Source: Candidatus Spechtbacteria bacterium
GTDB lineage: Bacteria; Patescibacteriota; Minisyncoccia; Spechtbacterales; JACPHP01
Length of the DNA: 64,000 bases
Assembly (NCBI GenBank): GCA_016188605.1
Contig: JACPHP010000009.1
Span: 24,786 to 88,785 of the forward strand
Direction: 5' to 3'
This document shows, in pieces, positions 10,376 to 53,785 of the stretch. Position 1 is the stretch's first letter, and every line of letters begins with the position of its first letter. The notes beneath the pieces were generated by a model. The model searched no databases. It saw nothing but the letters and a program-made list of their open reading frames with translations, and was not told where the DNA came from. A program made the translations under genes and the position numbers.

Positions 10376-10393
10376 AAGCCAATTATGGCACTA

Positions 10394-10540: not shown

Positions 10541-10575
10541 AATTAGGGAAATAGATAAGCTAGGTAAGTAACTTT

Positions 10576-12615
10576 ATGAAATTCAAACTTGTCTCCCCAT
10601 TTAGTCCCACCGGCGACCAACCCCAAGCAATCAAACAATTGTCCGAGGGCGTTTTGACTGGAAAGAAACATCAGGTTCTGCTTGGCGTTACAGGATCAGG
10701 TAAAACATTTACCGTGGCTTCGGTGATTGAAAAAGTACAAAAACCGACGCTGGTTATGTCACCCAACAAAACTCTCGCGTGGCAGCTGTATCAGGAGTTC
10801 AAGGAATTTTTTCCGGACAACGCTGTGGAATATTTTGTCAGCTATTACGACTATTATCAGCCGGAAGCATATATACCCCAGAGCGATACATACATAGAAA
10901 AGGACGCGCGTGTTAACGAAAAAATCGACCAGATGCGCCACCAGTCAGTGCAAAGTCTTTTAACTCGCAATGATGTTATAGTCATCGCTTCTGTGTCGTG
11001 CATCTATAACCTTGGCTCTCCCAAAGAATATCAAGCTGTTAGCGTGCGCATCGCGCAGGGGCAAAATATATCACGCCAACAATTCTTGCACGAGCTGGTG
11101 CGTTTAGGATACACGCGAAATGACATTGCTCCGGGCCCGGGAAATTTCAGCGCTAAAGGCGCGCAAGTAAAAGTGCATCCTTCAACCGGCCTTAATGTAG
11201 TACAGATAGAATTTGATAAGAATACTGTAAGTAAAATCGCGATGGTAGATGATACGAAGATGTTGAAGCTTAGCTTCAACGAGCTCGTTGAAGCTAAGCT
11301 TCAACATCTTGTGGACACAGTATCAATCTTCCCAGCGCACTTTTGGATAACGCCGGAAGAAAAACTGCGTATTGCAATTGTAAATATAAAACAAGAATTG
11401 CAAACAGCTCTGGCGAATTTGCGCGCGCAAGGAAAACTGCTTGAAGCGCAACGCCTGGAAAGCCGCACCAATTACGACATTGAGCTGATTGAGCAAACAG
11501 GCTGGTGCCACGGCATTGAAAACTATTCTTCGCACTTGGAGTTCCGCCCGGAAGGTTCTTCGCCCTACACTTTGCTTGATTATCTCGCCGAGTCACAAAA
11601 AGATTTTCTCACGATTATAGACGAATCACATCTTGCAGTCCCGCAGGTTGGCGGCATGTATTTTGGTGACAAAGCTAGAAAAACGACATTGGTTGATTAT
11701 GGCTTTCGATTGCCTTCAGCCAAAGACAATCGACCGCTTAAGTTTAGCGAATTTGAGGATCGTATTGGCCAGAGAGTATATGTAAGCGCCACGCCCGGGC
11801 ACTACGAATACGACGAAATAAAAATACAGGACGAGGAACAGTCTCTTTTAGGAAGGACCGACCCTCCTAATGCCTCGCTGGTGGAACAGGTCATCCGCCC
11901 GACCGGCCTTGTTGACCCATCGATAGAAATTCGCCCCACAGAAAACCAGATGAGAGACGCGATTGCGGAAATTGAAAAGCGTATCGCCAAAGGCCAGCGT
12001 TCTCTCGTAGTTACTATTACAAAGCGCCTCGCTGAAGATATTGCGGAATACTTGGCAGAGGAAAATATTACGGCCGCCTATCTGCACTCGGAAATCCACA
12101 CGCTGGAACGGCCAAAAATTTTGCGCGATTTACGCCTTGGCGTGTATGACGTTTTGGTGGGAATAAATCTTTTGCGCGAGGGATTGGACTTACCAGAAAC
12201 CTCTCTTGTAGTTATTTTTGACGCGGATAAAGAAGGATTTTTGCGCAACGAAACAACGCTTGTGCAAACTATGGGTCGCGCCGCGCGCCATCTTGAGGGG
12301 CACGTAATTATGTACGCCGACCAAGTCACCGGCTCCATGAAACGCGCTATATCCGAAGTTGACCGCAGACGAAAAATCCAGATTGCCTACAACGAAGAAC
12401 ACAACATCACCCCTAGAGGAGTAGAAAAGAAGATATATGATATGCCGGACGGGCTTAATCAAGAGGAAGAAAATGAAGAAGATTACTCCCCTGTCCAGAA
12501 ACTAGATGCCGGCGCGCAAAAGGAGATTGAAAAGCAAATGAAAATAGCGGCCAAAAATTTGGACTTTGAGAAGGCGGCGAAGTTAAGAGACAAACTCAAT
12601 AGAACCGCTTTATAA
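10576..12615 (+). CDS. uvrB: Excinuclease ABC subunit B (UvrB)
   Basis: GVTGSGKTF, helicase motifs, and a C-terminal UVR domain (FEKAAKLRDKLN), 679 aa. Confidence 0.9.
   Translation: MKFKLVSPFSPTGDQPQAIKQLSEGVLTGKKHQVLLGVTGSGKTFTVASVIEKVQKPTLVMSPNKTLAWQLYQEFKEFFPDNAVEYFVSYYDYYQPEAYIPQSDTYIEKDARVNEKIDQMRHQSVQSLLTRNDVIVIASVSCIYNLGSPKEYQAVSVRIAQGQNISRQQFLHELVRLGYTRNDIAPGPGNFSAKGAQVKVHPSTGLNVVQIEFDKNTVSKIAMVDDTKMLKLSFNELVEAKLQHLVDTVSIFPAHFWITPEEKLRIAIVNIKQELQTALANLRAQGKLLEAQRLESRTNYDIELIEQTGWCHGIENYSSHLEFRPEGSSPYTLLDYLAESQKDFLTIIDESHLAVPQVGGMYFGDKARKTTLVDYGFRLPSAKDNRPLKFSEFEDRIGQRVYVSATPGHYEYDEIKIQDEEQSLLGRTDPPNASLVEQVIRPTGLVDPSIEIRPTENQMRDAIAEIEKRIAKGQRSLVVTITKRLAEDIAEYLAEENITAAYLHSEIHTLERPKILRDLRLGVYDVLVGINLLREGLDLPETSLVVIFDADKEGFLRNETTLVQTMGRAARHLEGHVIMYADQVTGSMKRAISEVDRRRKIQIAYNEEHNITPRGVEKKIYDMPDGLNQEEENEEDYSPVQKLDAGAQKEIEKQMKIAAKNLDFEKAAKLRDKLNRTAL
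11257..11310. repeat. 54-bp perfect palindrome centred on GAGCTC inside the uvrB coding sequence
   Basis: aagatgttgaagcttagcttcaacgagctcgttgaagctaagcttcaacatctt is its own reverse complement. It is in frame and encodes KMLKLSFNELVEAKLQHL. Confidence 0.85.
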
Positions 12616-12943: not shown

Positions 12944-13969
12944 CTAAACGCGGAAAAACGCAGACAATTTCTGCGACTGTCCGCGTGTGTCAGCGAGTGC
13001 CCCGCTAAAGGCACTGGCGACACGAAGCGCAAGGAGCTCTACACCCAACTGCGGGTCTAGAGCTCCTTGTTTTATTAACACGTCTGTTTCATGCACCGCC
13101 TGCATTAAATCTTGAGCAGACTGCCACGAAATGCGCCTTGCCATATGAGATGTTTTGCGAAGAACAAATGGATGAACGCCAGCCAAAAACCCTTTCTTGT
13201 TGAAAGGGTTTTTGGCTACCCCCTCACTCTGCGATTTTAGCGCAGTGACAACACGCATCTGCCGCGCGATCATGGCAAGCAGGTAAAGAGGATCATCCCC
13301 TGCTTTAATATGGCTTTCAATTTGCGACAAACTATTCTTTACATCACCCGCAAAAAGAGCGTCTATTGTTGAAAAAATTTGTACTTGTTGGGGCGGTGGG
13401 GCAAGCATCTCCACGTCAGATTGTTTTATAGTCCCACCCTCAGCATAGGCACGAAGTTTTTGAATGTCGTTAGCCGTCTGCCATGAATCACCTTCACGCC
13501 ACTGGCTAAATAGCGTTAACGCTTTTGGCTCAAACAAAATACCGTGCGCCTCGGCAAGCTTTAACACCCATGCGCGAAACGCGGGACCGCGTAAAAAAGA
13601 AAATTCCTGTTTTTTTTCAGCTATCTTTTCTATCACAGAGGATTCCTTCACCGAGCTTGCCAGCGCTTCATCCCAGAAAACAATAAATGCCTGCGTGTCA
13701 TCGGCAATGGCGGCGTGGTTTTTATTCGCCCCCAAGTCGCGCAAGAAATCCTTGCTTTCAAGCGCGCGCTCCACAACAATAAGACGCTTTGGCGCAAATA
13801 AAGATCTGTCGCCGAAACGCTCCCAAAAAATACCAAAACCGTCTTGCGGCGCATAGATAGTGGACTCTGCGAGACCGCTGCCATATTTACTCCTATATGC
13901 CCCAACAAACTCACGCATTTTAGCTCGCGAGCGATATGTGTCTGGTCCGTGCAGAAAGATAATCATCAC
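12944..13969 (-). CDS. holA: DNA polymerase III delta subunit (HolA)
   Basis: N-terminal MIIFLHGPDTY..., length 341 aa, helical C-terminus typical of delta. Confidence 0.65.
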   Translation of the reverse strand: MMIIFLHGPDTYRSRAKMREFVGAYRSKYGSGLAESTIYAPQDGFGIFWERFGDRSLFAPKRLIVVERALESKDFLRDLGANKNHAAIADDTQAFIVFWDEALASSVKESSVIEKIAEKKQEFSFLRGPAFRAWVLKLAEAHGILFEPKALTLFSQWREGDSWQTANDIQKLRAYAEGGTIKQSDVEMLAPPPQQVQIFSTIDALFAGDVKNSLSQIESHIKAGDDPLYLLAMIARQMRVVTALKSQSEGVAKNPFNKKGFLAGVHPFVLRKTSHMARRISWQSAQDLMQAVHETDVLIKQGALDPQLGVELLALRVASAFSGALADTRGQSQKLSAFFRV

Positions 13970-14590: not shown

Positions 14591-14971
14591 ATGAAACCTT
14601 TTGAAAAACCATCACGAAACATGCAGTTATTGGGCCAGTATCTTAAATCCTTGCGCCTTGATTTTGGGCTAAGCATGCACGAGATAGCACGCCGCACTTC
14701 TCTCACTCCAAGCTATATATCTAAAATTGAATCTGGCGCGGTATTTCAATCAATCACAGTGCAAACACTTCAAGAGTTTGCTAAGGCATACAACTTGCCC
14801 GTGCAGCTCATTTTGGAGCGCGCTGGTTTTATCGAAGAATCTGCCGATGGCCTGCCAGCCCTCGGCGCATACCTTAAATCCAAACACCGTGCGCCGCACC
14901 AGGCGGTGCAGGAAATGGAATTGGCGTGGGAAATAATCAAGAAGAAATATTTATTGGATCGTACTCAATAA
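14591..14971 (+). CDS. XRE-family helix-turn-helix transcriptional regulator
   Basis: HTH segment LSMHEIARRTSLTPSYISKIESG (Cro/C1-type), 126 aa. Confidence 0.7.
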   Translation: MKPFEKPSRNMQLLGQYLKSLRLDFGLSMHEIARRTSLTPSYISKIESGAVFQSITVQTLQEFAKAYNLPVQLILERAGFIEESADGLPALGAYLKSKHRAPHQAVQEMELAWEIIKKKYLLDRTQ

Positions 14972-15018: not shown

Positions 15019-16068
15019 TTATTCTCCTATCCAATCAACCCTAGTCCCGGGATCGGCAATTTGAATCCACATAGTACCCCTTACTAAAAATACTTGTTTG
15101 CCATCTTTATCTAAAAACTCTAACGGGCTTGAAAGTTTTCTGGCATCTTTACGCCATTTAGCTTCCTGCCTTATTCCTTTCTGAAAAACCAGCGCGTCTC
15201 CCTCGCCCGTCACCGCCACCGTATTGTAATCTTTCTCTAGTTGGTGTGACGGCGCGAACATCACAACCACAACATCCGCGCTAACTTGTTGCTGCGTCAA
15301 CGCGTCAACTTCTTTCATATTACTGCGTGAACGTAAATATTTACCCGAGGATGGATCATAGGCGTAATCAACGCGGGCGGGATAATAAATCTTCAGTGTG
15401 CCGCTTTTATCGTTTCTCCCTTCGTTTGAGATACGGGCATATCCTGCAAATGTAGATGTTAGACTATAATCCAATCCCTGCGCCGCACGCAACATATTAT
15501 CAACCGACGTAAAGCCGTTATGCGGCGCTCTCACATATGATTTACGCCAGAATGTGTTAAATGGGTTCACTAAAGCATCGATACGATCTATAACATTCAA
15601 TTTTAATTCGTCTAACGCGTAGTGCGACCCTCCCCAATGAACAAATATCGCGTCAAAACCCGCGGCAAGCGGAATAAAATCGTGGCGCGCGGAACGAACA
15701 GACCCTATTTCTGACGACAAACTACATTGAAAAAGCGCCATCATGCGGTTAATGCCATTTGTAATCACCGGCATTTCAATAACAACATCAGCCAACCCAA
15801 TACCTGAAAGCGGACGAGCGACCTGATCTTCGGCCATCATCACGGCAAACGGCCTGCGTCCCGCGCTCTCGCCTTGCCCTTCCGTAGCTTTAGGCGAAGG
15901 AGGGCACGGCTCGCCGCGTAGAGAACTTATTGGTAAAATTATTTCTGGCACATCTTTTGCTACGGGCGCATTATTTTTTTCTTCCAGCGCCTTGTCAAAC
16001 ACCATAATCCTGTTGGGAATAATAAAAATACCCGCCGCGCCGATAAGCCCCGCGCCTATTGTTGCCAA
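15019..16068 (-). CDS. DUF3048-family secreted protein (YerB-like)
   Basis: N-terminal TM/signal segment. Motifs RPFAVMMAEDQVARPLSGIGLADVVIEMPV and IGSVRSARHDFIPLAAGFDAIFVHWGGS match my recall of DUF3048. Confidence 0.55.
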   Translation of the reverse strand: MATIGAGLIGAAGIFIIPNRIMVFDKALEEKNNAPVAKDVPEIILPISSLRGEPCPPSPKATEGQGESAGRRPFAVMMAEDQVARPLSGIGLADVVIEMPVITNGINRMMALFQCSLSSEIGSVRSARHDFIPLAAGFDAIFVHWGGSHYALDELKLNVIDRIDALVNPFNTFWRKSYVRAPHNGFTSVDNMLRAAQGLDYSLTSTFAGYARISNEGRNDKSGTLKIYYPARVDYAYDPSSGKYLRSRSNMKEVDALTQQQVSADVVVVMFAPSHQLEKDYNTVAVTGEGDALVFQKGIRQEAKWRKDARKLSSPLEFLDKDGKQVFLVRGTMWIQIADPGTRVDWIGE

Positions 16069-26184: not shown

Positions 26185-27531
26185 ATGAATCCTTTTTTTA
26201 ATGGCCTGCTTGGCATTAACGCGCGCAATTTGCTGTTTATACAGCGGTCAACTTCGCCGTACACGCGCGTATTAATAGACAATAAACTTAAAACAAAAGA
26301 GATTTTAGAAAAAAACAATATTCCCACGCCAAAAACATTCGCTGTTATTCGATCGGCTGACGAAGCTCTTAATTTTAACTGGTCGTCGCTTCCTTTGAGT
26401 TTTGCTCTTAAACCAAATAAAGGATTTGGTGGCGCGGGTATTGTGGTGGCATATGGAGAGTGTAAAAAAAATCACTCGCGAGCTGTAGGCTCGCCCCACA
26501 TACCCACTCGCACATGGATCGGTTTACGCCGTACTCATCTGGACACCAATTTTCTCTCAAAACATATTATAGACATCCTTGATGGAAAATATTCCATAAA
26601 TGGAACGCAAGACACCGCGTATTTTGAGGAAAGGATTAAACTACTCAAAGAATTTCGCATATTTACATCCAAAGGAATGCCTGATATTAGGGTTGTGGTT
26701 TACAACAGCATTCCTGTTATGGCGGAGTTGCGCTTGCCGACAACAGAATCTGACGGAAGGGCAAACCTGCACTTGGGCGGAGTTGGCGTGGGCATAGATA
26801 TCTCTACTGGTAAAACTACTTTTGCAATTCACCACGACAAACCAATAACATTTCATCCCGACAACTTAAGGATTCCATTGGCAGGCCTCGCCATCCCTTA
26901 TTGGGAAGAAATACTTGAGCTTGCGATTGCTTCTCAACAAGCTATTGGATCAAATTTCCTGGGGGTTGATATAAGCATTGATAAGTATAGAGGGCCTATG
27001 ATCTTGGAGTGCAACGCGCGCCCTGGACTCGCTATTCAGCTTGCCAATAGGGCACCACTTTATTCACGCCTTCAGCGCGTAGAGGGGTTAAAAATACATT
27101 CTATAAAACAAGGGGTACAAATTGCAAAAAATATATTTTGTGACGACAATTCGCATGAACAGGAGGGGTTACAGCGCACTGATATTATTGGTATAAGAGA
27201 AAATATTTCTATAATCACGCCTAATGGTATCACACACCCTACCGTGGCCAAGATAGACACCGGCGCCTATCGCACAACGCTTGATGTAAAAATAGCGGAA
27301 CAATTAAATCTAACTGGGATAAAAAAGTACAAACATGTTCGCGGTGTGCTAGGAAAAGAAAATAGACCAATTATTGATCTTGTTTTTGAATTACGAAATA
27401 AAAAAATAAGCACAGAAGCATTTGTGGCTGATCGAGAGGAAATGAAACACGATATTATTATAGGCAGAAGAGATCTTAAACGATTTTTAGTCGATCCCGC
27501 AAAAAATGTTAGAATTCCTTACAGTGAATAG
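26185..27531 (+). CDS. RimK-like ATP-grasp ligase fused to a C-terminal retropepsin-like domain (DUF785, formerly 'putative ATP-dependent zinc protease')
   Basis: N-terminal ATP-grasp region (IRSADEALNFNW..., GFGGAGIVVAYGE, ...). C-terminal AKIDTGAYRTTLDVKIAEQLNL is the hallmark DTGA aspartyl-protease-like motif of PF05618-type domains. Confidence 0.55.
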   Translation: MNPFFNGLLGINARNLLFIQRSTSPYTRVLIDNKLKTKEILEKNNIPTPKTFAVIRSADEALNFNWSSLPLSFALKPNKGFGGAGIVVAYGECKKNHSRAVGSPHIPTRTWIGLRRTHLDTNFLSKHIIDILDGKYSINGTQDTAYFEERIKLLKEFRIFTSKGMPDIRVVVYNSIPVMAELRLPTTESDGRANLHLGGVGVGIDISTGKTTFAIHHDKPITFHPDNLRIPLAGLAIPYWEEILELAIASQQAIGSNFLGVDISIDKYRGPMILECNARPGLAIQLANRAPLYSRLQRVEGLKIHSIKQGVQIAKNIFCDDNSHEQEGLQRTDIIGIRENISIITPNGITHPTVAKIDTGAYRTTLDVKIAEQLNLTGIKKYKHVRGVLGKENRPIIDLVFELRNKKISTEAFVADREEMKHDIIIGRRDLKRFLVDPAKNVRIPYSE

Positions 27532-27571: not shown

Positions 27572-28780
27572 TTATTTTATGCGCACCCTTGCAAATTTTC
27601 TTCTTCCAACCCTAACAACACTTCCGTCGCTAGGTGTAATGGTTTGCCGCCAGTCTTCAATTATTTCATCATTAATAAATACCGCCCTTTGCTCCACCAT
27701 GCGCTTTGCTTCGCTTTTTGAAGGCACGAGGTTAAGCGCAACAAGAAAGTCCATTATATTTATCTCTTTTTTGGATATAGTGATGGCTGGTATATCTGAA
27801 GGTATTTGATGTTGCGCAAAAACCCTATCAAATTCTTCCGCCGCTTCATCAGCGTCTTTTTTACCCCAATAAAATTCAGTGATTATGTGTGCTAGTAGGG
27901 CTTTGGTAGCGCGAGGATTGCCTCCCTCTACAAGGTTTTGTATTTCTTCCTTAGATAATTCTGTTAAGTAGGTGAAATAATCTCTTACTAAAGCGTCTGG
28001 TATGCTCATTAATTTTCCGTACATAGAGTTTGGCTCCTCTGAAAGTCCAATATAATTACCCAAACTCTTGCTCATTTTTTGTGCGCCGTCCGTGCCGATA
28101 AGGTATGGGGTTAAAACAACGTCTTGCGGCTCCATGCCGGCTTGTTTTTGCAAAACGCGCCCCGTAAGAATATTAAATTTCTGCTCGCTTGCCCCAACTT
28201 CCACATCCGCCTTAACCATTACAGAATCGTACCCTTGAAGGAGCGGATATAACATTTCGTGTGCCATAAACGGCCGCTCGTTTTCCAAGCGCTTGCGAAA
28301 TGTTTCATGACTCAAAAGATAAGATACTGACAGCCGTGATGTTAGTTCCAAGATGTCTTTTAGGCGAAATTTGTTAAACCACTCGCTCTGAAAATGGAGT
28401 TCTGTCTGATCTTTTTTAAGAATTTTTAAGATTTGATTTTTATACAAAGCGCTGTTATTTTTAATCTCTTTTAGAGATAACGAATGGCGCGTAGTATCTT
28501 TACCCGACGGGTCCCCTATAGAAGCCGTGTAGTCTCCAATTATAATAACCGCGGTATGACCAAGCTCCTGGAAATGTCGCAATTTCCACAAGGGTATAGT
28601 GTGGCCAAGGTGAATATCTGGCGCTGTTGGATCAATCCCAAACTTAACACGCAATTTTTTGCCCCCTCTAAGGGCTTCTAACAGGTGGTCCTTCTCGATA
28701 ATCTCTACTACGCCACGCTCTATAACCTGAATAACAAGTTCTTGAGTGGCCTGTGTATCGCTTGTTTTTTTTATTGACAT
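27572..28780 (-). CDS. tyrS: Tyrosyl-tRNA synthetase
   Basis: HIGH motif in GIDPTAPDIHLGHTIPL. KMSKS present (KMSKSLGN). C-terminal S4-like region. I chose the ATG at 28780; the ORF-track maximal start is 28834. Confidence 0.85.
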   Translation of the reverse strand: MSIKKTSDTQATQELVIQVIERGVVEIIEKDHLLEALRGGKKLRVKFGIDPTAPDIHLGHTIPLWKLRHFQELGHTAVIIIGDYTASIGDPSGKDTTRHSLSLKEIKNNSALYKNQILKILKKDQTELHFQSEWFNKFRLKDILELTSRLSVSYLLSHETFRKRLENERPFMAHEMLYPLLQGYDSVMVKADVEVGASEQKFNILTGRVLQKQAGMEPQDVVLTPYLIGTDGAQKMSKSLGNYIGLSEEPNSMYGKLMSIPDALVRDYFTYLTELSKEEIQNLVEGGNPRATKALLAHIITEFYWGKKDADEAAEEFDRVFAQHQIPSDIPAITISKKEINIMDFLVALNLVPSKSEAKRMVEQRAVFINDEIIEDWRQTITPSDGSVVRVGRRKFARVRIK

Positions 28781-28834
28781 ATAATATAAAGGTGAGGCTA
28801 ATATAAATCTGTCTCGAAAATAAATTTTAAGCAC

Positions 28835-31980: not shown

Positions 31981-33120
31981 TTATTTCCTTAGTGGCATCA
32001 CAATATAACGATATTCTTGTTTTGAAGACGGCTCAAACACTATCGGGCCGTCTTTTTGTTTTATTTTAACTATAACATCAGAATCCTCTAGGGGTTGCAA
32101 GCCGTCAAGCAAATATTGATAATTAAACACAATATCTTGATCTTCACCTCCCTCAATATTGCAAGACACGCGAGATTTAAATGACCCCCTGTCGTAATCT
32201 TCTGTTGATATTTCAACGCATTTCTGCGCTGGTAATACACGAATACCTATTTCTCTTAGCTTATTTGCGAACAATCCGGCGCTTTTTATTGTATTTAATA
32301 ATTCTGATTTAGAAATAATTACTTTTGTCTTCCATTCTTTGGGAATAATTTGTATATAATCAGGATAATCACCATCAATAAGACGAGAGATAAGTGTTAG
32401 TGCCGGAATATTTGATTGTTCGTTGGGATTATATTCAAACAATACCTGGCCCTGGCCCAAATAACAAACTAGCGGTGAAATTGATTCATCTTGCTGAAAA
32501 ATACGTATAATTTCCTGAGCTGCCCTCATTGGTAAAATAAAATTTATATCATCATCTGATTTTGACTTATATAGATCTGTATTTTCTGCTAAACGAAAAC
32601 TATCTGTAGCAACGCAAATAATTGAGTTGGGTGTAAATTTTACTAATATGCCCGTTAACTCTGGCTTAGTATCAACAACGGATAAAGAGTGTATAACGCG
32701 TTCGAGCGAATGCGCAAATTTATTCGCCTCTATATTAAAACCGTTATCGCGAGAAAGTTTAGGTAAAAGAGGATAGTTTGTCGGGTCATCGCCTTTTATT
32801 TGAGCCACAACGCCTTCATTTACTCCTGTAATAATAAGTGTTTGTTTTTTTTCAGCTCCTATAATTGAATCATCTGACATTGTCCGTATAAGACCGCTTA
32901 ATGTATGCGCTGGTAAGGCCAATACGCCTTCTTTCTGCACTTTAGCGGAAACCCACGCGGAAATACCAACCTCTAAATCAGTAGCAATAAACACTAATCT
33001 ATTCTGCTCTGCTCTAATAAGAATATTTTGAAGAATGGGCAGTGTGGTATTACGACCGCATACACGCTCAACTAACTGTATTCCTTGAAAAAATTTATTT
33101 TTAGTACAGGTGAATTCCAT
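31981..33120 (-). CDS. dnaN: DNA polymerase III beta sliding clamp
   Basis: 379 aa, N-terminus MEFTCTKNKFFQGIQLVERV..., immediately downstream of dnaA. Confidence 0.85.
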   Translation of the reverse strand: MEFTCTKNKFFQGIQLVERVCGRNTTLPILQNILIRAEQNRLVFIATDLEVGISAWVSAKVQKEGVLALPAHTLSGLIRTMSDDSIIGAEKKQTLIITGVNEGVVAQIKGDDPTNYPLLPKLSRDNGFNIEANKFAHSLERVIHSLSVVDTKPELTGILVKFTPNSIICVATDSFRLAENTDLYKSKSDDDINFILPMRAAQEIIRIFQQDESISPLVCYLGQGQVLFEYNPNEQSNIPALTLISRLIDGDYPDYIQIIPKEWKTKVIISKSELLNTIKSAGLFANKLREIGIRVLPAQKCVEISTEDYDRGSFKSRVSCNIEGGEDQDIVFNYQYLLDGLQPLEDSDVIVKIKQKDGPIVFEPSSKQEYRYIVMPLRK

Positions 33121-33342: not shown

Positions 33343-34713
33343 CTACAATTGTAGTATTTTTTGTTTTATTATCTCAAATTCCTCTCTAAAAAATTCATCT
33401 TTTTTTAATTTTTCCGCAATTTTATTACAAGCATGCATAACTGTGGTATGATCTCTTCCCCCAAGTGTTTTGCCAATTAATGGATAGGAGGTGTGAATAA
33501 CTTCGCGCATGGCATACATAATAACCTGACGCGCGTGAGCGAGCTCTTTTCTTCTGTTTTTGCTTAATATTTCCTTTTCTTTAATATTATAAAACCCAGA
33601 CACTGCGGCAGTAATAACCTTGTGTGTTATGAGAGGACGAGAGTTTTTAACAATACCCCTTAATGCTTTTTTAGTATCTTCTAATGTGATTTGCCGATCT
33701 GGCTCATTTGCTTTAGATGTAAGCAGAATATTAAGAGCGCCTTCTAGCTCCCTCATATTTCTTTGTATTTGTTCCGCGATAAATTGAAGGATACTTAGGT
33801 GTAAATTAAGGTTTTTTTCTTTACATTTTGCTTGTAAAATGGCTAGTCGCATTTCATATTCTGGGTAACTGATATCAGCGATCATTCCTCCCTCGAAACG
33901 AGATCGCAATCTCTCCTCAAGTGTTGCAATTGATTGTGGCGGTCTGTCAGAGCTTAAAATAATTTGTTTATTGTTTTCGTAAAGAGTATTAAATGTGTGG
34001 AAAAACTCCTCTTGTGTTGTTACTTTACCGGCTATAAATTGAATATCATCAATGATTAGCGCGTCAATTTTCCTATAGCGCGCCTTAAATTCATCCATTT
34101 TTTTGTTGCGCATTGACACAACAAGATCGTTTAAAAAATGTTCAGAAGAAAGGTATCTAATTTTTTTTCCTTTTTGGAAAAATTCATTTCCTATGGCTTG
34201 CAAAAGATGTGTTTTACCAAGCCCCACCCCCCCGTATATAAATAAGGGGTTATAAAGTGTTCCGGGTTGTTTAATAATAGCTTGGGCTGCCGCATGAGCT
34301 ATTACATTTGAAGATCCCACTATAAATGAGTCAAAAGTATATTTTGAATTAAGTCCTGTCTCTTTATTTACCACTATGCGTTCCAAGGGCAGTTCGTATA
34401 AATTTGTTTTTTGCATCTGTTGTGGGGTAATCAAACGAACCCTAGTATTTTGAGTTAAGGGATTTTTTCGCGCGTTTATTATATAGCTTATTTCTTTTAT
34501 TTCAGGGGCAAGCGTTCTTATTGCCTTAAGTATATGTTTATGATATTTATTTTCTAACCATTCTTTAGCAAAGCCGCTAGGAACAGCAATAATAACCTCC
34601 CCATCATTTTTTGCAGTGATAGAAGTATTACGAAACCACGTTATGTAATTTGCGGGAGAAATTTGAAGCTCTATGTCGGCCAAAGCCGCTTGCCATAGTT
34701 CGTTCGGGTTCAT
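33343..34713 (-). CDS. dnaA: Chromosomal replication initiator DnaA
   Basis: Walker A GGVGLGKTHLLQAIGN, DDIQFIAGK, and C-terminal DNA-binding helix HTTVMHACNKI. 456 aa. Confidence 0.95.
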   Translation of the reverse strand: MNPNELWQAALADIELQISPANYITWFRNTSITAKNDGEVIIAVPSGFAKEWLENKYHKHILKAIRTLAPEIKEISYIINARKNPLTQNTRVRLITPQQMQKTNLYELPLERIVVNKETGLNSKYTFDSFIVGSSNVIAHAAAQAIIKQPGTLYNPLFIYGGVGLGKTHLLQAIGNEFFQKGKKIRYLSSEHFLNDLVVSMRNKKMDEFKARYRKIDALIIDDIQFIAGKVTTQEEFFHTFNTLYENNKQIILSSDRPPQSIATLEERLRSRFEGGMIADISYPEYEMRLAILQAKCKEKNLNLHLSILQFIAEQIQRNMRELEGALNILLTSKANEPDRQITLEDTKKALRGIVKNSRPLITHKVITAAVSGFYNIKEKEILSKNRRKELAHARQVIMYAMREVIHTSYPLIGKTLGGRDHTTVMHACNKIAEKLKKDEFFREEFEIIKQKILQL

Positions 34714-40700: not shown

Positions 40701-42212
40701 TTAATTGCCAAACCCTATATAGCGATATGCATGCGTCATTCTTGATTGCCAACGATCAGGTCCGGTAGGAAGATAATTCTCTAAAGAAGCTTGCCATTCC
40801 CTTCTAACAACGCCATCAGCCCCCACTGGGTCGTCGAGCCAAATTGCAACATGTCCATCTGGCCCCCAACCATTGTTTGTAGGAAATAAAATATCACCCG
40901 GCCTTAATTGGCTAGAATCAGTTATGTTAACAAATTGAAAGTTCGGATTATTCTTAAGATAATCCTCTTGTGTTGGCGTGCCAATATCGGGAAAACTAGG
41001 ATCAATTGTTGCCTTTACAACGCTAGCTACGTAAATACCACAATCAGCACCATAGAAATTTGTTGCAGTCTTAAGGTAGAGTGGTTCTGCGTGAATATAA
41101 AGCTGGTGTTCGGGAGCGCTGGGATTAAGTGTTTGTTGGAAGGGTTTTATGGCAAATCCACGAGCAACGCGCGCGAAGTCGGTATACGTGGTTCCTCCAA
41201 CCACTCCCCCGCCAATTCCAGCACTTCCTCCAACCCCACCATAATACTGAAGCTTTATACTTGATACATCATTATCCCAATGATCAATAATACAACCATC
41301 CGTAAGGCAAATTAGATTGAAGTTAATAAATAATATTCCTGCCTTGTTTCTACTATCTCCGGTTACTTTAGATAAACAGTCCTGCGTTACGTTGCTGTCT
41401 AGAAACTTTTGTTTGCACGTATAAGTTGTGCCATGAACTGTTACTTCTATCCATCCTTTGGCCGGCTGGCCAGTATTGTTATTTGGATACTGGAAAAAAG
41501 TTGCCTTAGTATTTCCGGTAACAACTGCCATCTGAACCTTGCCATCATAATTACCCACAATGTTTCCAGCAGAATCAATAATTGGTAGGTTGTATAAATT
41601 TTCATTTCCCGGGATACTAATTGCAGTTGGGCAATTTTTTGTTATGTCAAAGGGTGGCGTGCCGTCTAATCTAGACAGGTCGTGTAATGCGTAAATGCAT
41701 ACGCCGTTTTGTAATCCTTGCGTCCCGCCTCCTACCGCGCCGGAAAGGGTTGGGAAGTCGGGATTGCTGCAAGCCGGCATGCCCGGAGCGCCGCATATTT
41801 TAAACGAACTTTCGCTCGGTGTAAGCAACTGCGGATTGATATTGGCAAGTAAAATATATGATCCGAGCAAGATTACCATGCCAACAAGAACATCGCGAAT
41901 GCGCTGCTGTGCTTTAAGCCGTTTCCACGGCGAGCCGGTTGAGGTGGCGAGCGTAAACATGGCGACCAGCAGCGCGCCCAACGCCATAAGCCCAGCAAGC
42001 CATAGCGCGCCGGCAAAAGCAAACTGCAAAATCTGCGGAATAGTTATACCGCCGGCGATTTGGTCTAGCGTGTTAAGTGTTTGGGGCAGATCTCCAAATC
42101 CGGGAATATGTGGGTATTGTAGTTCAAGAGCATTCGCCGAAGGCGAATACAAGAATCCCACAACCAAAAAAAGAGCGAAGAAAAATAGTTTTTGTAAAAT
42201 TTTTTTAATCAT
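40701..42212 (-). CDS. Secreted pilin-like (TrbC/VirB2-like two-helix) module fused to a C-terminal CHAP-type peptidoglycan peptidase domain
   Basis: Signal peptide ...SPSANA|LELQYPHIPGFGDL. Two hydrophobic helices (ILQFAFAGALWLAGLMALGALLVAMFTLA / VLVGMVILLGSYILLANINPQL). C-terminal YGADCGIYVA ... PDGHVAIWLDD, a Cys...His pair as in CHAP/NlpC-P60. Paralogous to the next two genes. Confidence 0.5.
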   Translation of the reverse strand: MIKKILQKLFFFALFLVVGFLYSPSANALELQYPHIPGFGDLPQTLNTLDQIAGGITIPQILQFAFAGALWLAGLMALGALLVAMFTLATSTGSPWKRLKAQQRIRDVLVGMVILLGSYILLANINPQLLTPSESSFKICGAPGMPACSNPDFPTLSGAVGGGTQGLQNGVCIYALHDLSRLDGTPPFDITKNCPTAISIPGNENLYNLPIIDSAGNIVGNYDGKVQMAVVTGNTKATFFQYPNNNTGQPAKGWIEVTVHGTTYTCKQKFLDSNVTQDCLSKVTGDSRNKAGILFINFNLICLTDGCIIDHWDNDVSSIKLQYYGGVGGSAGIGGGVVGGTTYTDFARVARGFAIKPFQQTLNPSAPEHQLYIHAEPLYLKTATNFYGADCGIYVASVVKATIDPSFPDIGTPTQEDYLKNNPNFQFVNITDSSQLRPGDILFPTNNGWGPDGHVAIWLDDPVGADGVVRREWQASLENYLPTGPDRWQSRMTHAYRYIGFGN

Positions 42213-43691
42213 TTATCGTGTTACCGGAGGATTCAAAGGGATTTTCGCTCCATTTGTTCCAAGAGGAACAAAACGATCATAGGTTGCTCCAAAATTTTTT
42301 ATAAAATTTGGATTATTCGCGCATATAAAATTTTGATTGGGACCGCAGAACCAACGTACCCACTCGGCAAAATCATTAGGGTGTTCGTTGTGAGTAAAGT
42401 TGATAAAACAATCAAGCGATTGTTGAAAGGGTACTGTAGATAATACACCGCCCGGAAAACATCCAAACCCGCTGGCCGCATCAACTCCCGGGCTTGATGC
42501 GCCAGACTCCTCGGCCCATATAGAAAAAGCAAAAGCCGGATTTATGGAATTAGCTATAGCGGCATCAATAACCCTTTGTCCTAGCTCTTCAACGCGATTG
42601 TCAGTGAATCCCATTGTGTCTAAAATATTTTTAGCCCTAGCAAGGTCTACTGCAACAGAAGAGTCTGTATGCGATATAGTATACGTGAGGGGCTGTGGAG
42701 GATTGATAACCGCTCCTCCTCCCAATAAACTTACCTTTATACTAGATATATCATCTTCCCAGCGGTCGCCAAAGGAACCACAGCTTGATTCTATACATAT
42801 ATTTTTAAAATTCACGTAAAGCAAACCGCCCTTATTCCTGGGGTCAGAGCCAAGATCGTTTTTACAATCATGTATATCTTGACCTGTATTAGGTTTGCGT
42901 CGGCAAGAGTAGTTGGCGCCATCTTTGATGATTTCTATCCATCCTTTGTCGTCTTGTCCTGCATTGTAGTCTCTGTATTGGTAAAAGGTGGCTTTTGTAG
43001 TAGTGCCTGTAATGATAGCGAAGTATACTTTACCATCCCAATTTAATGGTCCGCTCGATCCTGGTACAATGCGGGGATTATTAGTTAAATCTGCATCACC
43101 GGGCGGGATAATTTGAGCTGGGCAATCTTTTGTGATGTCAAAAGGTGTCCCTAGGTTTATAGGCGTTGTATCTAGCATACACACGCCTGACGTTAGGGAT
43201 AAAGTTGGGTCTATTTCGCTTCCTCCGCCCAATATGTCTGGGAAATCAGGATTCTTGCATTGAATTGTTCCTCCTCTGCCATCGGGCGCGCCACAAATAC
43301 GGAAATACTGGCCACCCAAGGTTAATAATTGGGGGTTAAGAAGGCCAAGGACGATGTATACGCCAAGCAGAATTACCACACCAATCATCACATCCCATAT
43401 TCTATTTTTTGCATTCATTTGTTTCCATGGCGCGCCTTGGGACGTGGCATACATAAATCCTGCTATAATAAGCGCCCCAAACGCCATTAGCCCCGCGATC
43501 CACAGTGAAAAAGCCAGCACGAATTGGACAAGCTGACCAATTCCAAGCGCGCCGCTATTGTAAAGCGTATTTAAATCCCCAAATCCCGGAATGGTGGGAT
43601 ATTGGAGCTCAAGAGCACGCGTGGGGGGAGCAATAACACTGAAAAGAATACTAGCTAAAAATATATATATTTTTTTATTTAGTTTAATCAT
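42213..43691 (-). CDS. Secreted pilin-like module fused to a C-terminal lysozyme-like (GH73/SLT-like) domain candidate
   Basis: Signal peptide ...PPTRA|LELQYPTIPGFGDL. Helices FVLAFSLWIAGLMAFGALIIAGFMYA / VMIGVVILLGVYIVLGLLNPQL. The central region is paralogous to 40701..42212 (TPFDITKDCPA, cysteine pattern). The C-terminal NPAFAFSIWAEESGASSPG resembles the catalytic Glu-Ser-Gly of GH73/GH23. Confidence 0.4.
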   Translation of the reverse strand: MIKLNKKIYIFLASILFSVIAPPTRALELQYPTIPGFGDLNTLYNSGALGIGQLVQFVLAFSLWIAGLMAFGALIIAGFMYATSQGAPWKQMNAKNRIWDVMIGVVILLGVYIVLGLLNPQLLTLGGQYFRICGAPDGRGGTIQCKNPDFPDILGGGSEIDPTLSLTSGVCMLDTTPINLGTPFDITKDCPAQIIPPGDADLTNNPRIVPGSSGPLNWDGKVYFAIITGTTTKATFYQYRDYNAGQDDKGWIEIIKDGANYSCRRKPNTGQDIHDCKNDLGSDPRNKGGLLYVNFKNICIESSCGSFGDRWEDDISSIKVSLLGGGAVINPPQPLTYTISHTDSSVAVDLARAKNILDTMGFTDNRVEELGQRVIDAAIANSINPAFAFSIWAEESGASSPGVDAASGFGCFPGGVLSTVPFQQSLDCFINFTHNEHPNDFAEWVRWFCGPNQNFICANNPNFIKNFGATYDRFVPLGTNGAKIPLNPPVTR

Positions 43692-43693: not shown

Positions 43694-46312
43694 TTAATTT
43701 ATGTTTTGTGCAAATGACTGGTAAGCTTGATATAGCGTATCCCAGTCACGATGGAATATGTGGTCCATTCCTCGGTCGCGATCACCGTCACCGTTATCAG
43801 TAGGTGTTGCCATAAATCCCCACTGACAGTAAAATCCTGTTCCTGCGGTAAAGGCTTTTTGCATGTCATCGCTGATATTTTGAGAACGGTCGTCATTTGG
43901 TCCCGCGTTAAAACCCGCCTCATCAAGTATATAGGGTTTATTTTGCTGTTGGGCAATCCATAAATCTTGATCATTAAATCCATTATAGGAGTGAGCGCCA
44001 ACGAAGTCGAAAGAATTATAAAGATCAAGCGCTTGATCTTGAGATAAGCCCGCCTGCTCTGTTTTTTCTAAACCTGTTCCTATCAAATGATATGGATCTT
44101 GTTTTCGTATTTCATCAGCCATATTTTTCATAAAGGCAACTAAATCTTCATTGTTTCCTCCCTGAAGAGTGTTGTTGCGCAACTCATTACCTACTTGCCA
44201 TGCAAATATGCCAGGATGCCTGCCGCCTCCTATTTGTTCTGTGATAAGGCGTACCCATGGCAGGTAGTTTTGTCTAAAACCTTGTTTAAACCACTGTGGA
44301 TTGAGCACCGCAGGTATGTTGGGCGAGCCATCAGATTGATAATACGCATCGTCTCCTGGTGGGGAAAAACCAGTTTGGAACCAATCGGTTAGTGCAACAA
44401 TAACTCGCATATCGTATTGATAATAGGCCTTATCGAGAAAAATTCGTACACGATCCACTGATTGTTGCGGAGTGAGAGAATTGTTCGCCCCAAACAGTCT
44501 TATGACTTTCACACCCATTGCTTTTGCAGCGGCAAGCTGGGTATCTTCTGTGCCACCCGCTTGTTGTACATATCCTACACCAGCGCCATAGTGCGCCAGT
44601 CCCCTATTGCTTATGCAGATACCTCGAAAAGGGGTTGTTCCCAGGACAAAATTTTTGCCATTACTACTAACCACTCCAGCGATAGGCGCCGACGAATTTC
44701 CTGGTGGTCTTCCATTCCCACCTCCACTCGACCCACCTCCTCCGGTGGTTCCTCCTCCCCCGGCCGCGCCTCCGCCAACTCCAAGCGCGCTTGCCCCGTC
44801 GCAAAAATAGAAATCTTCATTGCGGCAGGTTTGGGTATCTGTGCGCGTAGCTGTGTCGGGGCAGCAAAAGTCGCTGCTGCTACAGTAAACATTTTCGTGT
44901 ATCGCTGATTTTTTCTTTGTTTCGTTACAAGTGGTAAGCCAAAGGTTGTGAGGAGTAGCGGGGTCATAGTTTGCAATTGCAAGCACTCCCAGAGGATCAA
45001 TTTGTTCGGCAAGATACGCCAAGCTTGCTGTGGAGTTTGCGTCTGTGCCAAGCGCCTGAAGCCGGGCGCGAAAGGCGTTAAGCTGGGCAAGCTTCGCCCA
45101 TGTATCTGGTGAGCAGGATTTGTCGTAATTATTGTACGCGCCACCCTGCCTATTTTCGCAATTTCCAGCCGCCGTGCCAATACCCGCAGAACAGGTTGTG
45201 GACGAGGGGCATACAAACTGGGTGTTTGAACACGAGCACGCGTTGATGGCATTAGATATGGAATTGATATTATCAATAAGCGCCTGTTCTTTTTGTAATA
45301 ATTCCGGAATTTTTAGTGTCAGTCTTCTAAAAGTCGTATGGTCTGTGTTGCCGCAAAAATAATCAGTACTCTCAGCGCAGTCAGTGCAGTTTTTTGCCAA
45401 ATCAGAGAAAGGTACTGCCAGCGAATAATTTAATAGCTCGCCCGAAATAGTCACGCACGATTGAATTTGCGCACGTATTGGTTTAATCTCGTTATTCCAA
45501 AAAGTGCGAAGGTCGTTAAGAATATTAATTGTTTCTCCAAGCAATGTATTGGCTGTACCGCGAGCTGCGCATGGCTCCGGGCTTCCTCCAGATGACTGTG
45601 TGCAGGGATCTGCGACGCATGTAGACGGCGGCTGGCACTCCCAACCGCAAGAAGTGCAATCTTTCCCGCAAGACCTGCATATGTAAGCGCCCGGAGTATA
45701 GGGGGTGGGTGTTATCCCTTGGCACGCGCTTGCGGAACAGCCCGCGAGTCCATCTTTTACTTTGGTTACCAGACCGTTGTAGATTAGCCCATCCGGCAGA
45801 GAATTATACATATCTTGTATTAACACATCCGTGTTATCAAGCGCTTTCCCCAACGCGTATTTTGAAAATTGGCTGCCGGGAGCAATGGTATTGGGAATAT
45901 TAGGCGAAATTGTTGATACGGAAATATCAGGGAACGCCGGTGCTTCGCGAAAACCCAGGGTGGTCAGCTGAGGATTTATGAAATTTAAAAAAATTACCGC
46001 GCCAAGCAGCATCAGTATGCCTACGATAATGCTAATGATATGGTTACGAGCCGCAAGGCGTTTCAAGGGCGTTTGTCCGCTTGTGGCAAGCTGGAAACCG
46101 ATCATAATTATTCCCGCAACAGCCACTAAACTGCCTACGCCAAGCGATGCGTTAAAAATAATTTTAGTAATTTCGCCGATTGTAAGAGTATCTTTAATTG
46201 GTAAAAAGGAAGGATATGAAAGCTCCAGCGCTTGAGCTGGATGAACGACAAAAAGGCCGAAGATGAGCGCTGTGGCCAGGTAAGGCAATGCATCTATAAT
46301 TTTTTTAAGCAT
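43694..46312 (-). CDS. Large secreted pilin-like module / Cys-rich region / Gly-rich linker / C-terminal GH5-like (clan GH-A) glycoside hydrolase domain
   Basis: Signal ...HPAQA|LELSYPSF. Helices SLVAVAGIIMIGFQLATSG / IISIIVGILMLLGAVIFLNFINPQL. Many Cys residues; GGGAAGGGGTTGGGGSSGGGNG linker. C-terminal motifs FAWQVGNELRN (NE acid/base), VGAHSY (His-x-Tyr), ILDEAGF (nucleophile Glu) and QWGF (Trp) follow the GH5 order of conserved residues. Confidence 0.5.
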   Translation of the reverse strand: MLKKIIDALPYLATALIFGLFVVHPAQALELSYPSFLPIKDTLTIGEITKIIFNASLGVGSLVAVAGIIMIGFQLATSGQTPLKRLAARNHIISIIVGILMLLGAVIFLNFINPQLTTLGFREAPAFPDISVSTISPNIPNTIAPGSQFSKYALGKALDNTDVLIQDMYNSLPDGLIYNGLVTKVKDGLAGCSASACQGITPTPYTPGAYICRSCGKDCTSCGWECQPPSTCVADPCTQSSGGSPEPCAARGTANTLLGETINILNDLRTFWNNEIKPIRAQIQSCVTISGELLNYSLAVPFSDLAKNCTDCAESTDYFCGNTDHTTFRRLTLKIPELLQKEQALIDNINSISNAINACSCSNTQFVCPSSTTCSAGIGTAAGNCENRQGGAYNNYDKSCSPDTWAKLAQLNAFRARLQALGTDANSTASLAYLAEQIDPLGVLAIANYDPATPHNLWLTTCNETKKKSAIHENVYCSSSDFCCPDTATRTDTQTCRNEDFYFCDGASALGVGGGAAGGGGTTGGGGSSGGGNGRPPGNSSAPIAGVVSSNGKNFVLGTTPFRGICISNRGLAHYGAGVGYVQQAGGTEDTQLAAAKAMGVKVIRLFGANNSLTPQQSVDRVRIFLDKAYYQYDMRVIVALTDWFQTGFSPPGDDAYYQSDGSPNIPAVLNPQWFKQGFRQNYLPWVRLITEQIGGGRHPGIFAWQVGNELRNNTLQGGNNEDLVAFMKNMADEIRKQDPYHLIGTGLEKTEQAGLSQDQALDLYNSFDFVGAHSYNGFNDQDLWIAQQQNKPYILDEAGFNAGPNDDRSQNISDDMQKAFTAGTGFYCQWGFMATPTDNGDGDRDRGMDHIFHRDWDTLYQAYQSFAQNIN

Positions 46313-52894: not shown

Positions 52895-53785
52895 TTACAG
52901 TGGATATCTATTGACGAGAGTTTTCCACTCGTTAAGCGATAATGTTTCGGGACGGCGAGTTTGTTCAATATCGTTTTGAGCAAGCCATATCGTTATTTTT
53001 TCTTTTGGCAGGCCGAGCCCTTGCGATAAGGTTTTTTGTAGCTGTTGGCGCGGGTGTGCAAACCCAGCTTTGGCGATTTTGAAGAACAACGGAATATCTT
53101 TTTCTGCTATGACTGGGCTAGGATAGACATCCACAACTAATAATGCGGAATCAACTGTAGGTTGCGGCCAAAAAGCGCCCTTGGAAACTATGCGTACAAT
53201 AGTAGGGTTGCCATATAATTGCACGGAAAGAGCCAAAAGATTCATCCCGTTAGAGGTAGAGCGGCGCTGTGAGCCCTCGCGACCTCTAACGGGATTCATG
53301 TCTGGGGTCTTTGCGCAAATCTTCTGCGCTACTTCTTTTTGGATAATAACAGCGATTCGACTTGGGCGAATCGGCTCTTCATCAAGGAATTTACGGAATA
53401 GACGGGCTGTTAAATAATAAGGAGGCGTTCCGACGAGTTTGTAGTCCTGTATTCTGTATTCCGTATTCTGTATTCTCAGTGCGTCGCCCTCGATAATTTC
53501 TATATTCTTATAGTTTGCCGTTTGCTCGCGCAGAATAGGAATTAATGCGCGATCTTTTTCAATTGTCACGACGCGGCCAACGTATTTTGCTATTTCTGTC
53601 GTAACCGTGCCTAGTCCGCCGCCTATCTCAAGCACTGTATCGTTTTTATCTAGCTGTGCCGCGGCGATTAGAGCGTTAAGAATATCTTGATTAACCAAAA
53701 AATTCTGCCCAAGCCGCTTGTTTGGCATTAAAATATCATGTTGCAGGTAGATTTCTTTGATTTCAGAGGGCGTTAGCATAAGCAA
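52895..53785 (-). CDS. rsmA: 16S rRNA (adenine1518/1519-N6)-dimethyltransferase KsgA/RsmA
   Basis: GQNFLVNQDILNALIAAA, SAM motif VLEIGGGLGTVT. Contains an in-frame heptamer array (53446-53479) encoding RIQNTEYRIQDYK. Confidence 0.85.
   Translation of the reverse strand: MLMLTPSEIKEIYLQHDILMPNKRLGQNFLVNQDILNALIAAAQLDKNDTVLEIGGGLGTVTTEIAKYVGRVVTIEKDRALIPILREQTANYKNIEIIEGDALRIQNTEYRIQDYKLVGTPPYYLTARLFRKFLDEEPIRPSRIAVIIQKEVAQKICAKTPDMNPVRGREGSQRRSTSNGMNLLALSVQLYGNPTIVRIVSKGAFWPQPTVDSALLVVDVYPSPVIAEKDIPLFFKIAKAGFAHPRQQLQKTLSQGLGLPKEKITIWLAQNDIEQTRRPETLSLNEWKTLVNRYPL

Follow-up and report, generated by a model that had tools for sequence, protein, structure and literature searches.

How does DNA that is exactly self-complementary over 54 bp come to lie within the intact reading frame of a uvrB gene, and what, if anything, does it do there? 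This question is raised by a 64,000-nucleotide stretch of a Candidatus Spechtbacteria genome (GenBank assembly GCA_016188605.1, contig JACPHP010000009.1, positions 24,786 to 88,785 of the forward strand), here called the window, whose uvrB gene carries a perfect palindrome of 18 codons. With a probability of about 0.62, this palindrome originated as an inverted duplication produced by replication template switching at a short palindrome and was then tolerated in a permissive surface loop of the protein. It is most likely a mutational scar and not a device, with no function of its own. The positions of the palindrome, its component parts and the related features are collected in Table 1.

The palindrome and its host gene

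The uvrB gene that hosts the palindrome encodes a protein that matches the UvrB of Bacillus caldotenax (2fdc) with E = 2e-227 over residues 2-673, and the Pfam families ResIII/DEAD, UvrB_inter, Helicase_C, UvrB and UVR were all recovered in it above their cut-offs. Additionally, an NCBI protein that bears the annotation UvrB matches the product with 100% identity. It is encoded on a 103-kb contig of a Candidatus Spechtbacteria metagenome-assembled genome (MAG), which belongs to the Candidate Phyla Radiation (CPR, or Patescibacteria). The original prediction had described the segment as exactly self-complementary and as translated without disruption of the UvrB frame, and both statements hold. 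The two 27-nt halves, AAGATGTTGAAGCTTAGCTTCAACGAG followed directly by CTCGTTGAAGCTAAGCTTCAACATCTT, are 100% complementary with 0 nt between them, the sequence being as quoted, and they encode in frame 1, with no stop codon, residues 228-245 (KMLKLSFNELVEAKLQHL) of a full-length UvrB. Translational bypass, as in phage T4 gene 60 and the yeast mitochondrial bypassing elements, was also considered and rejected, given that the segment is open, in frame and has no stop at a take-off site.

The uvrB palindrome is not explained by chance. The expected number of zero-spacer perfect palindromes with 27-nt arms in 64 kb is about 4e-12 (64000 x 4^-27), and the longest perfect arm obtained in shuffled coding open reading frames (ORFs), in shuffle sets of 40 and 20, was 13 nt.

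A detail absent from the original prediction is that each arm holds a nested quasi-palindrome of 19 nt, the first copy of which folds on its own to -8.6 kcal/mol. Compared as direct repeats, the two copies are 95% identical, with T in the centre of one and A in the centre of the other, and compared as inverted repeats they are 100% identical. Since the second copy matches the first, centre base included, only when inverted, the arrangement points to an inversion and not to a tandem duplication. Beyond the perfect core, the RNA fold of 11227-11340 has the outer flanks paired around it, the 3′ side carrying a 9-nt bulge (GTGGACACA), and direct reading of the sequence gives 9/10 matches with one indel between the outer arms. 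The layers of the palindrome therefore suggest that its arms were extended more than once.

The same nested units could be read in another way, as four GTTGAAGCT half-sites that form an operator-like site for a dimeric or tetrameric DNA-binding protein. Their alternating orientation, in two 19-bp units 25 bp apart, would suit such a site. However, the motif was found nowhere else in the window, every intergenic region included. The site is internal to a coding sequence, with the start codon 680 nt away, it departs from the LexA box patterns, and its matches in other genomes are unrelated terminator-like hairpins. An operator at this position is scarcely credible, and the earlier suggestion of a site bound by a DNA-binding factor finds no support, the motif being unrepeated in the window even when 2-3 mismatches were allowed. 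A LexA-type operator in particular was rejected on the unrepeated motif and the unfitting spacing.

The palindrome-encoded loop of UvrB

The Pfam match to UvrB_inter, which corresponds to domain 2, stops at residue 228, where the palindrome-encoded peptide begins. In an AlphaFold2 model of the window UvrB (mean predicted local distance difference test score, pLDDT, of 83.6; 67-77 for the peptide), residues 226-243 form two short helices between strands 217-224 and 248-251, and the peptide is accordingly modelled as a surface loop that forms the tip of the final beta-hairpin in domain 2. The catalytic motifs of UvrB are all retained despite the 18 residues.

In about 78 other bacterial UvrB proteins, the turn at this position is fixed in length and carries the motif D-P-L-T-G-E. 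In 60 CPR homologs the motif is lost, and the same loop is unconserved and measures anything between 0 and about 30 residues; in the window UvrB it is 11 residues longer than in B. caldotenax. When the protein was scored against a profile of its 13 nearest relatives, the deletion of any 9 loop residues raised the score by 5-6 bits and the deletion of all 18 lowered it by 6 bits. Since the profile prefers a loop shorter by 9 residues, the excess appears to be one arm's worth of sequence and not 18 codons. About one arm (9 codons, 27 nt) is thus probably extra, the other standing in place of the ancestral loop. The original prediction of an 18-codon insertion into a surface loop was consequently right about the loop, which is lineage-specific and which AlphaFold2 places at the hairpin tip of domain 2, but not about its size, as the profile scores favour some 9 extra codons over a clean insertion of 18. 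The alignment of orthologs further indicated that the 18 residues are not conserved UvrB sequence, and a coincidence of codon choice is not supported.

As to which arm came first, the profile scores of the two arms are nearly equal (1110.9 vs 1110.3 bits) and do not distinguish the ancestral one. A likeness, judged by eye, to the D-K-L-K-S-L-N of related Spechtbacteria loops weakly favours arm 1 as ancestral, arm 2 being presumed to be the copied arm. A screen of 120 homologs at the peptide level, for residue pairs compatible with reverse complementation, returned P0001 and one other 9-pair match, with a shuffle null too noisy for the screen to be informative.

A proposed template-switch origin

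In the mechanism proposed, the nascent strand would finish copying the DNA of the uvrB loop and end in the palindrome CGAGCTCG. The 3′ end at CGAGCTCG, being complementary to both strands, would move to the complementary strand or fold back on itself, whereupon the approximately 24-27 nt just made would be copied as their reverse complement before a return to the original template. About 27 nt (9 codons) would thereby have been duplicated in frame and in inverted orientation, and this copy and the template arm would jointly make up the 54-bp perfect palindrome. The template arm would already have contained a 19-nt quasi-palindrome, a type of sequence known to provoke such switches, and the pre-existence of this unit would explain the nested architecture. 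Persistence would then require little, as the tip of the domain 2 loop tolerates 0 to about 30 residues in this CPR clade and the peptide would simply be translated. It has been described that template switching creates, perfects and extends inverted repeats, in coding DNA as well (PMC5453318, PMC8604942), and it has been discussed as a mechanism for the coding palindromes of Nematomorpha mitochondria (PMC6649704).

The inverted asymmetric bases, the zero spacer, the layered architecture, the one-arm excess, the single copy and the permissive loop all fit this origin, as do other in-gene repeats of the window that coincide with loop insertions, namely those of pcrA/uvrD and ksgA. The zero-spacer symmetry carries particular meaning, because symmetry through the very centre follows from strand-to-strand copying of DNA, whereas selection for an RNA hairpin needs no self-complementary loop bases. 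A palindromic centre is inevitable in any perfect palindrome, and CGAGCTCG is therefore compatible with template switching and no independent proof of it. The exact symmetry, the reading frame, the hypervariable position, the single copy within all that was searched and the excess of comparable inverted repeats in this genome were demonstrated directly; what we infer in this account is the template switch itself, its polarity, that is, which arm is ancestral, and neutrality.

Inverted repeats in other uvrB genes

The original prediction had also anticipated a very stable hairpin in the mRNA, and the computed folding agrees with it. As RNA, the 54-mer is predicted to form a 25-bp stem of -40.8 kcal/mol (z = -11.5 vs shuffles), and as DNA it folds to -28.4 kcal/mol. 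The sequence thereby implies several side effects that are not known to be used, namely a 25-bp mRNA hairpin that ribosomes would have to unwind, a stem that is in principle of RNase III substrate length and a cruciform-prone DNA segment.

Among 85 uvrB genes, the two strongest outliers in local folding were P0030 (z = -6.2) and the window gene (z = -5.0), and both hairpins lie at the same alignment position. Each arm of the P0030 repeat also holds a nested quasi-palindrome, in a sequence entirely different from that of the window. Further inverted repeats, of independent sequence, were found in the same loop and in a second variable loop of UvrB, located between SATPxxYE and IVEQ (Table 1); between the loop 2 stems of P0011 and P0006, which are homologous, there are two paired, compensatory changes. 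In the same loop, folding exceeded synonymous resampling in 4 of 10 CPR genes (z from -2.1 to -6.2) in a sampling biased to long loops, and z was about 0 in the remaining CPR genes, including those of the nearest relatives, P0002 and P0006. Counted over whole genes, 13 CPR uvrB genes, several of them picked for long loops, held 14 inverted repeats vs 3.6 expected, the excess falling entirely in the long-loop genes. In 79 non-CPR uvrB genes, 22 were counted vs 23.9 expected. A metagenome scan, in which the matches listed were mostly non-CPR uvrB genes at 49-56% identity, served as a control set. The long loop insertions of these UvrB proteins thus tend toward being encoded by inverted repeats.

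These observations also bear on a different explanation, in which a selected cis-acting RNA or DNA hairpin tunes uvrB expression through ribosome pausing between domains, RNase III cleavage or mRNA stabilisation, the peptide being a passenger. The very stable fold would be accounted for, as would the hairpin-forming DNA that several CPR uvrB genes carry in one or other of the same two variable loops, and the compensatory pair changes in loop 2. However, no sequence is common to the hairpins, the same-loop hairpin is absent in the nearest relatives and CPR uvrB genes that were not selected for long loops have no excess of inverted repeats. In addition, the symmetry reaches through the loop bases, which an RNA would not need. 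No Rfam family was detected at threshold for the palindrome (best 16.5 bits vs a threshold of 109), and no terminator, U-tract or promoter pattern was found at 11257-11310. Finally, the presence of similar repeats in unrelated genes of the same genome argues for a genome-wide mutational cause. A selected hairpin is considered unlikely on this balance.

A separate observation was made in the 12-kb locus L109 (JGI Ga0255806_1000858), in which four of the six in-gene inverted repeats lie within uvrB (10001-12067). Two of these repeats overlie the conserved motifs KIDALVGINL and VIMYADIMT, and the variable neighbours of these motifs look, from the sequence, as though they had been converted to the reverse complement of the conserved codons.

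Searches for further copies

The palindrome was also considered as a possible small selfish element inserted in frame, of the Rickettsia palindromic element type or of the repetitive extragenic palindromic (REP) or MITE (miniature inverted-repeat transposable element) type. An in-frame palindrome in a permissive loop of a housekeeping gene would agree with such an element, two small inverted palindromes that form one larger hairpin recall REP doublets and at least one intergenic palindromic repeat of this genome is truly multi-copy (53785-53871 and 60928-61020). The searches gave no further copy, however. In the 64-kb window, the 19-mer had 0 further matches at up to 3 mismatches vs 0.02 expected, and its 14-mer core had no other occurrence at up to 2 mismatches, intergenic regions included. 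No related copy was found in an exact scan of the GTDB representative genomes, a collection to which the source genome does not belong, and the palindrome had no match by BLAST in plasmid and phage collections. The other in-gene repeats are unrelated to it in sequence. Furthermore, the borders show no target-site duplication, as the flanks GATACG and GTGGAC are not repeats, and no transposase or RAYT-like (REP-associated tyrosine transposase) gene is present among the annotated window ORFs. The length of 54 bp is well under the 100-150 bp of such elements, and only half of the palindrome is excess length. A selfish element is therefore judged very unlikely.

In the GTDB genomes, the 19-mer GTTGAAGCTWAGCTTCAAC was found as a short hairpin at 17 loci (L001-L017) of unrelated organisms, vs an estimated 4-9 expected. 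Four of these loci are in one MAG (DRR093005_bin.42), and three Vibrio species and one Shewanella have the 19-mer in terminator-like contexts. These 17 hairpins are unrelated to the uvrB palindrome, and many are flanked by A- and T-tracts, as terminators are.

The intergenic repeat mentioned above is about 90 bp long, is present in two copies (ATCAACGAATAACGAATCC ... GGATTCGTTATTCGTTGAT) and has internal CGAAT(A/T)A sub-repeats. It is a true multi-copy element and is unrelated in sequence to the uvrB palindrome.

Other palindromes in the same genome

The uvrB palindrome is accompanied by other inverted repeats. Across 53-54 ORFs, or 58 kb of coding DNA in this one 64-kb window, 8 perfect inverted repeats were counted whose arms measure at least 10 nt and whose spacers do not exceed 30 nt, vs 1.7-2.0 expected from synonymous-codon shuffles. 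Their arm lengths include 27, 17, 16 and 14 nt, vs a shuffle maximum of 13 nt, and their sequences are unrelated. In the pcrA/uvrD-like helicase, the loop that contains the repeat-encoded peptide IAGAPLWGAPAM is 9 amino acids longer than in PcrA (1pjr), and in ksgA the peptide NPVRGREGSQRRSTSNGM is a 15-amino-acid insertion relative to the KsgA of B. subtilis (6ifs), with imperfect outer arms (76%) at 53224-53315. In holA, the repeat at 13181-13217 involves little net length change with respect to the delta subunit 3zh9. Only the other holA repeat overlaps a segment that can be aligned to this solved delta subunit; the uvrB palindrome itself encodes a hypervariable loop.

Two further perfect palindromes, each of 50 bp and with zero spacer, are located between convergent genes. 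One, at 14968-15017, has arms that reach the stop codon of the plus-strand gene and is symmetric through its loop, and the other, at 27523-27572, takes in the final two codons of an ATP-grasp gene together with its stop codon. Both resemble bidirectional terminators, with arms that have extended outward to the stop codons. Together with the uvrB palindrome they are symmetric through the very centre, for which simple arithmetic gives a chance of 1/16 per site.

In three syntenic 22-kb segments of other CPR genomes, as well as in 50 kb of Escherichia coli, inverted repeats were not in excess and their arms did not exceed 13 nt. Since the syntenic CPR segments show no excess, the propensity for inverted repeats belongs to this genome and not to CPR as a whole. 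A generalisation to all CPR was accordingly ruled out by these three segments and by the unselected CPR uvrB genes, which likewise have no excess.

Table 1. Positions of the uvrB palindrome, its parts and related inverted repeats. Coordinates are those of the window unless a coding sequence (CDS) numbering is given.
Feature	Gene or locus	Coordinates	Strand	Description
uvrB CDS	uvrB	10576..12615	+	679 amino acids, intact, full length; structure match, Pfam domains
Perfect palindrome	uvrB	11257..11310	.	54 bp, zero spacer, 18 in-frame codons
Arm 1	uvrB	11257..11283	+	27 nt, encodes KMLKLSFNE
Arm 2	uvrB	11284..11310	+	27 nt, encodes LVEAKLQHL; exact reverse complement of arm 1
Nested 19-nt quasi-palindrome, copy 1	uvrB	11262..11280	.	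GTTGAAGCT-T-AGCTTCAAC
Nested 19-nt quasi-palindrome, copy 2	uvrB	11287..11305	.	GTTGAAGCT-A-AGCTTCAAC
Central 8-nt palindrome	uvrB	11280..11287	.	CGAGCTCG, read from the sequence; putative switch point
Outer imperfect arm, 5′	uvrB	11247..11255	+	AGATGATAC, codons D-D-T; pairs with 11320-11329
Outer imperfect arm, 3′	uvrB	11320..11329	+	GTATCAATCT, codons V-S-I, conserved strand before FPAHFW
Inverted repeat	holA (DNA polymerase III delta; 12944..13969)	13181-13217	-	16-nt arms; encodes VAKNPFNKKGFLA
Inverted repeat	holA	13030-13069	-	12-nt arms; encodes QGALDPQLGVELLA; overlaps segment aligning to 3zh9 delta
Perfect palindrome	Between HTH_3 gene (14591..14971 +) and DUF3048 gene (15019..16068 -), convergent	14968-15017		50 bp, zero spacer; ATAAGCAATACAAAAGCCTCCACAA followed directly by TTGTGGAGGCTTTTGTATTGCTTAT
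Perfect palindrome	Between ATP-grasp gene (26185..27531 +) and tyrS (27572..28834 -)	27523-27572		50 bp, zero spacer; AGTGAATAGCAAAAACTCCCCGCCG followed directly by CGGCGGGGAGTTTTTGCTATTCACT
Inverted repeat	ksgA/rsmA (52895..53785)	53244-53295	-	14-nt perfect arms, 24-nt spacer; encodes NPVRGREGSQRRSTSNGM
Inverted repeat	pcrA/uvrD-like gene (53883..55841)	55527-55563	-	37 nt, 17-nt perfect arms, -38.4 kcal/mol; encodes IAGAPLWGAPAM
Inverted repeat, same UvrB loop	P0030, L018 (ENA k141_943458)	CDS 659-736		28-nt perfect arms, 22-nt spacer
Inverted repeat, same UvrB loop	P0027, L103	CDS 691-719		GATACAGCGGTACC-G-GATACCGCTGTATC, 14-nt arms, one mismatch
Palindrome, second variable loop	P0011, L019/L109	CDS 1264-1290		Perfect 13+1+13 palindrome
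Insertion made of hairpins	P0011, L019/L109	CDS 704-733		10-residue insertion vs relative P0004, made of G5/C5 hairpins
Inverted repeat, second variable loop	P0006, L020	CDS 1224-1252		13-nt arms, 3-nt spacer, one mismatch; homologous to P0011 palindrome

The position of this genome as an outlier in long perfect palindromes among CPR segments, together with the fact that the source MAG is known from a single contig, could raise the suspicion of an assembly or library artefact, in which a fold-back chimera was fixed in the MAG consensus. However, a fold-back would run on into the reverse complement of the upstream gene, and here the UvrB sequence resumes in frame on both sides. Moreover, all the in-gene repeats found keep the frame, the two compared with distant homologs for extra length (pcrA/uvrD and ksgA) lie in permissive loops and partial decay is apparent in some, both in the outer arms of the ksgA repeat and in the one-mismatch arms of the uvrB homologs, as in evolving sequence. 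Comparable palindromes also occur in assemblies from independent projects and assemblers, and none was present in the 79 non-CPR uvrB genes, nearly all of which come from similar metagenome assemblies. Taken together, these points make an artefact highly improbable. Contamination with a vector or polylinker, prompted by the HindIII and SacI sites, was also rejected, given that the NCBI protein record has the 18 residues and that true UvrB sequence is found on both sides.

A broader version of the template-switch origin is possible, if doubtful. In it, this lineage, together with a few other CPR bacteria, would have a peculiarity of replication or repair that makes strand-switch duplication a main source of new loops, the arms being kept identical by arm-to-arm copying. 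A candidate for this peculiarity may be the loss of hairpin-surveillance nucleases of the SbcCD type or of the 3′-exonuclease type. If true, bacteria would have their own parallel to the coding palindromes that are actively maintained in Nematomorpha mitochondria, one that expands over terminators and gene ends too.

Some additional features of the window were noted in the course of the analysis. The holA repeat at 13181-13217 (AGCCAAAAACCCTTTC...GAAAGGGTTTTTGGCT) has A- and T-tracts and resembles a bidirectional terminator, and rpsT converges on holA with 30 nt between the stop codons. The holA repeats might thus end the uvrB-rpsT transcript inside the opposing gene. The genes dnaN (31981..33120, minus strand) and dnaA (33343..34713, minus strand) are located at the minimum of the cumulative GC skew, at about 34 kb, and the chromosomal replication origin probably lies within the window. 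With an origin at about 34 kb, uvrB, on the plus strand to its left, would be transcribed head-on to the replication fork, as would pcrA and ksgA on the other side. Lastly, the region 40701-52862 holds large minus-strand ORFs without a Pfam match (40701..42212, 42213..43691, 43694..46312 and 50379..52862), with a TraG-like P-loop ATPase (46822..48639) among them, and may be an integrated conjugative or secretion module.

Observations that weigh against the proposed origin

Several observations count against a template-switch duplication without function. The palindrome is known from assembled MAG sequence alone. The source genome beyond the 64-kb window lies outside the collections searched, and copies of the palindrome are possible there. 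The nearest homolog in the databases searched is 63% identical, a single-arm ancestor was not observed and the event is unpolarised. Several lineages have hairpins at one or other of the same two UvrB loops, with the paired changes between P0011 and P0006 at loop 2, and this could reflect selection for structure in place of repeated copying. Lastly, no excess of inverted repeats was found in the unselected CPR uvrB genes, those that bear palindromes having been picked in part for their long loops.

Significance

If the duplication is accepted, the uvrB locus offers a clean natural example of a protein that gains a surface segment in one step, the second half of the peptide being the antisense of the first. 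Perfect palindromes of 50-54 bp are unstable in E. coli, where they are cleaved by SbcCD. The tolerance of such palindromes by this genome raises the question of which hairpin-processing functions the reduced CPR genomes have lost. In terms of annotation and alignment, the palindrome-encoded insertions of UvrB, PcrA/UvrD and KsgA are not to be taken as functional motifs, mobile elements or regulatory sites. Should the pattern prove genome-wide, it would provide a bacterial system in which to follow the origin and upkeep of coding palindromes.

Comparison with known systems

Among the systems described previously, three kinds of palindromic or inverted sequence invite comparison with the uvrB case, in addition to template-switch mutations. 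Rickettsia palindromic elements form families of many similar copies, of 100-150 bp, that decay with time. They resemble the uvrB case in that palindromic DNA is found in housekeeping genes and encodes an extra peptide in a permissive surface region of the protein, and they differ from it in that the uvrB palindrome is single-copy in everything searched, measures 54 bp and is perfect. These elements are mentioned in the study of Nematomorpha mitochondria (PMC6649704). REP doublets (REPINs) and bidirectional intrinsic terminators share with the uvrB palindrome the formation of one larger hairpin from small palindromes. However, REPs are extragenic and multi-copy, and terminators are extragenic and have U-tracts, whereas the uvrB palindrome is intragenic, unique and devoid of a U-tract.

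The coding palindromes of Nematomorpha mitochondria, reported in 2019 (PMC6649704), are similar to those of the window in being long perfect inverted repeats located within protein-coding genes, with both arms in frame, and in occurring many times per genome with mutually unrelated sequences. They are gained and lost between lineages, and the authors favoured copying or conversion, template switching included, over function (PMC6649704). On the other hand, the Nematomorpha repeats reach up to 284 bp, belong to an animal organelle and have arms that encode conserved regions, whereas the uvrB palindrome has 54 bp, belongs to a bacterial chromosome and encodes a hypervariable loop. Translation and protein activity were shown for the Nematomorpha, and the uvrB palindrome is known from its sequence. 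In full-text literature searches, no report of coding palindromes was found for CPR bacteria, and the only instances encountered were from animal mitochondria.

Template-switch mutations and quasi-palindrome correction (Loytynoja and Goldman 2017, PMC5453318; Abraham and Hazkani-Covo 2021, PMC8604942) provide the other parallel. As in uvrB, such events produce the exact reverse complement of the adjacent sequence, are centred on a short palindrome and alter several neighbouring codons together. Arm homogenisation and arm extension have also been described (PMC5453318, PMC8604942). The yeast study of this pair reports coding events that alter up to five neighbouring amino acids. By comparison, the uvrB palindrome has arms of 27 nt and a net gain of about 9 codons, and its event was deduced without tree reconstruction. 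The uvrB case is thus a variant, in a bacterium and with a loop insertion, of phenomena already described in mitochondria and yeast, namely coding palindromes and template switches.

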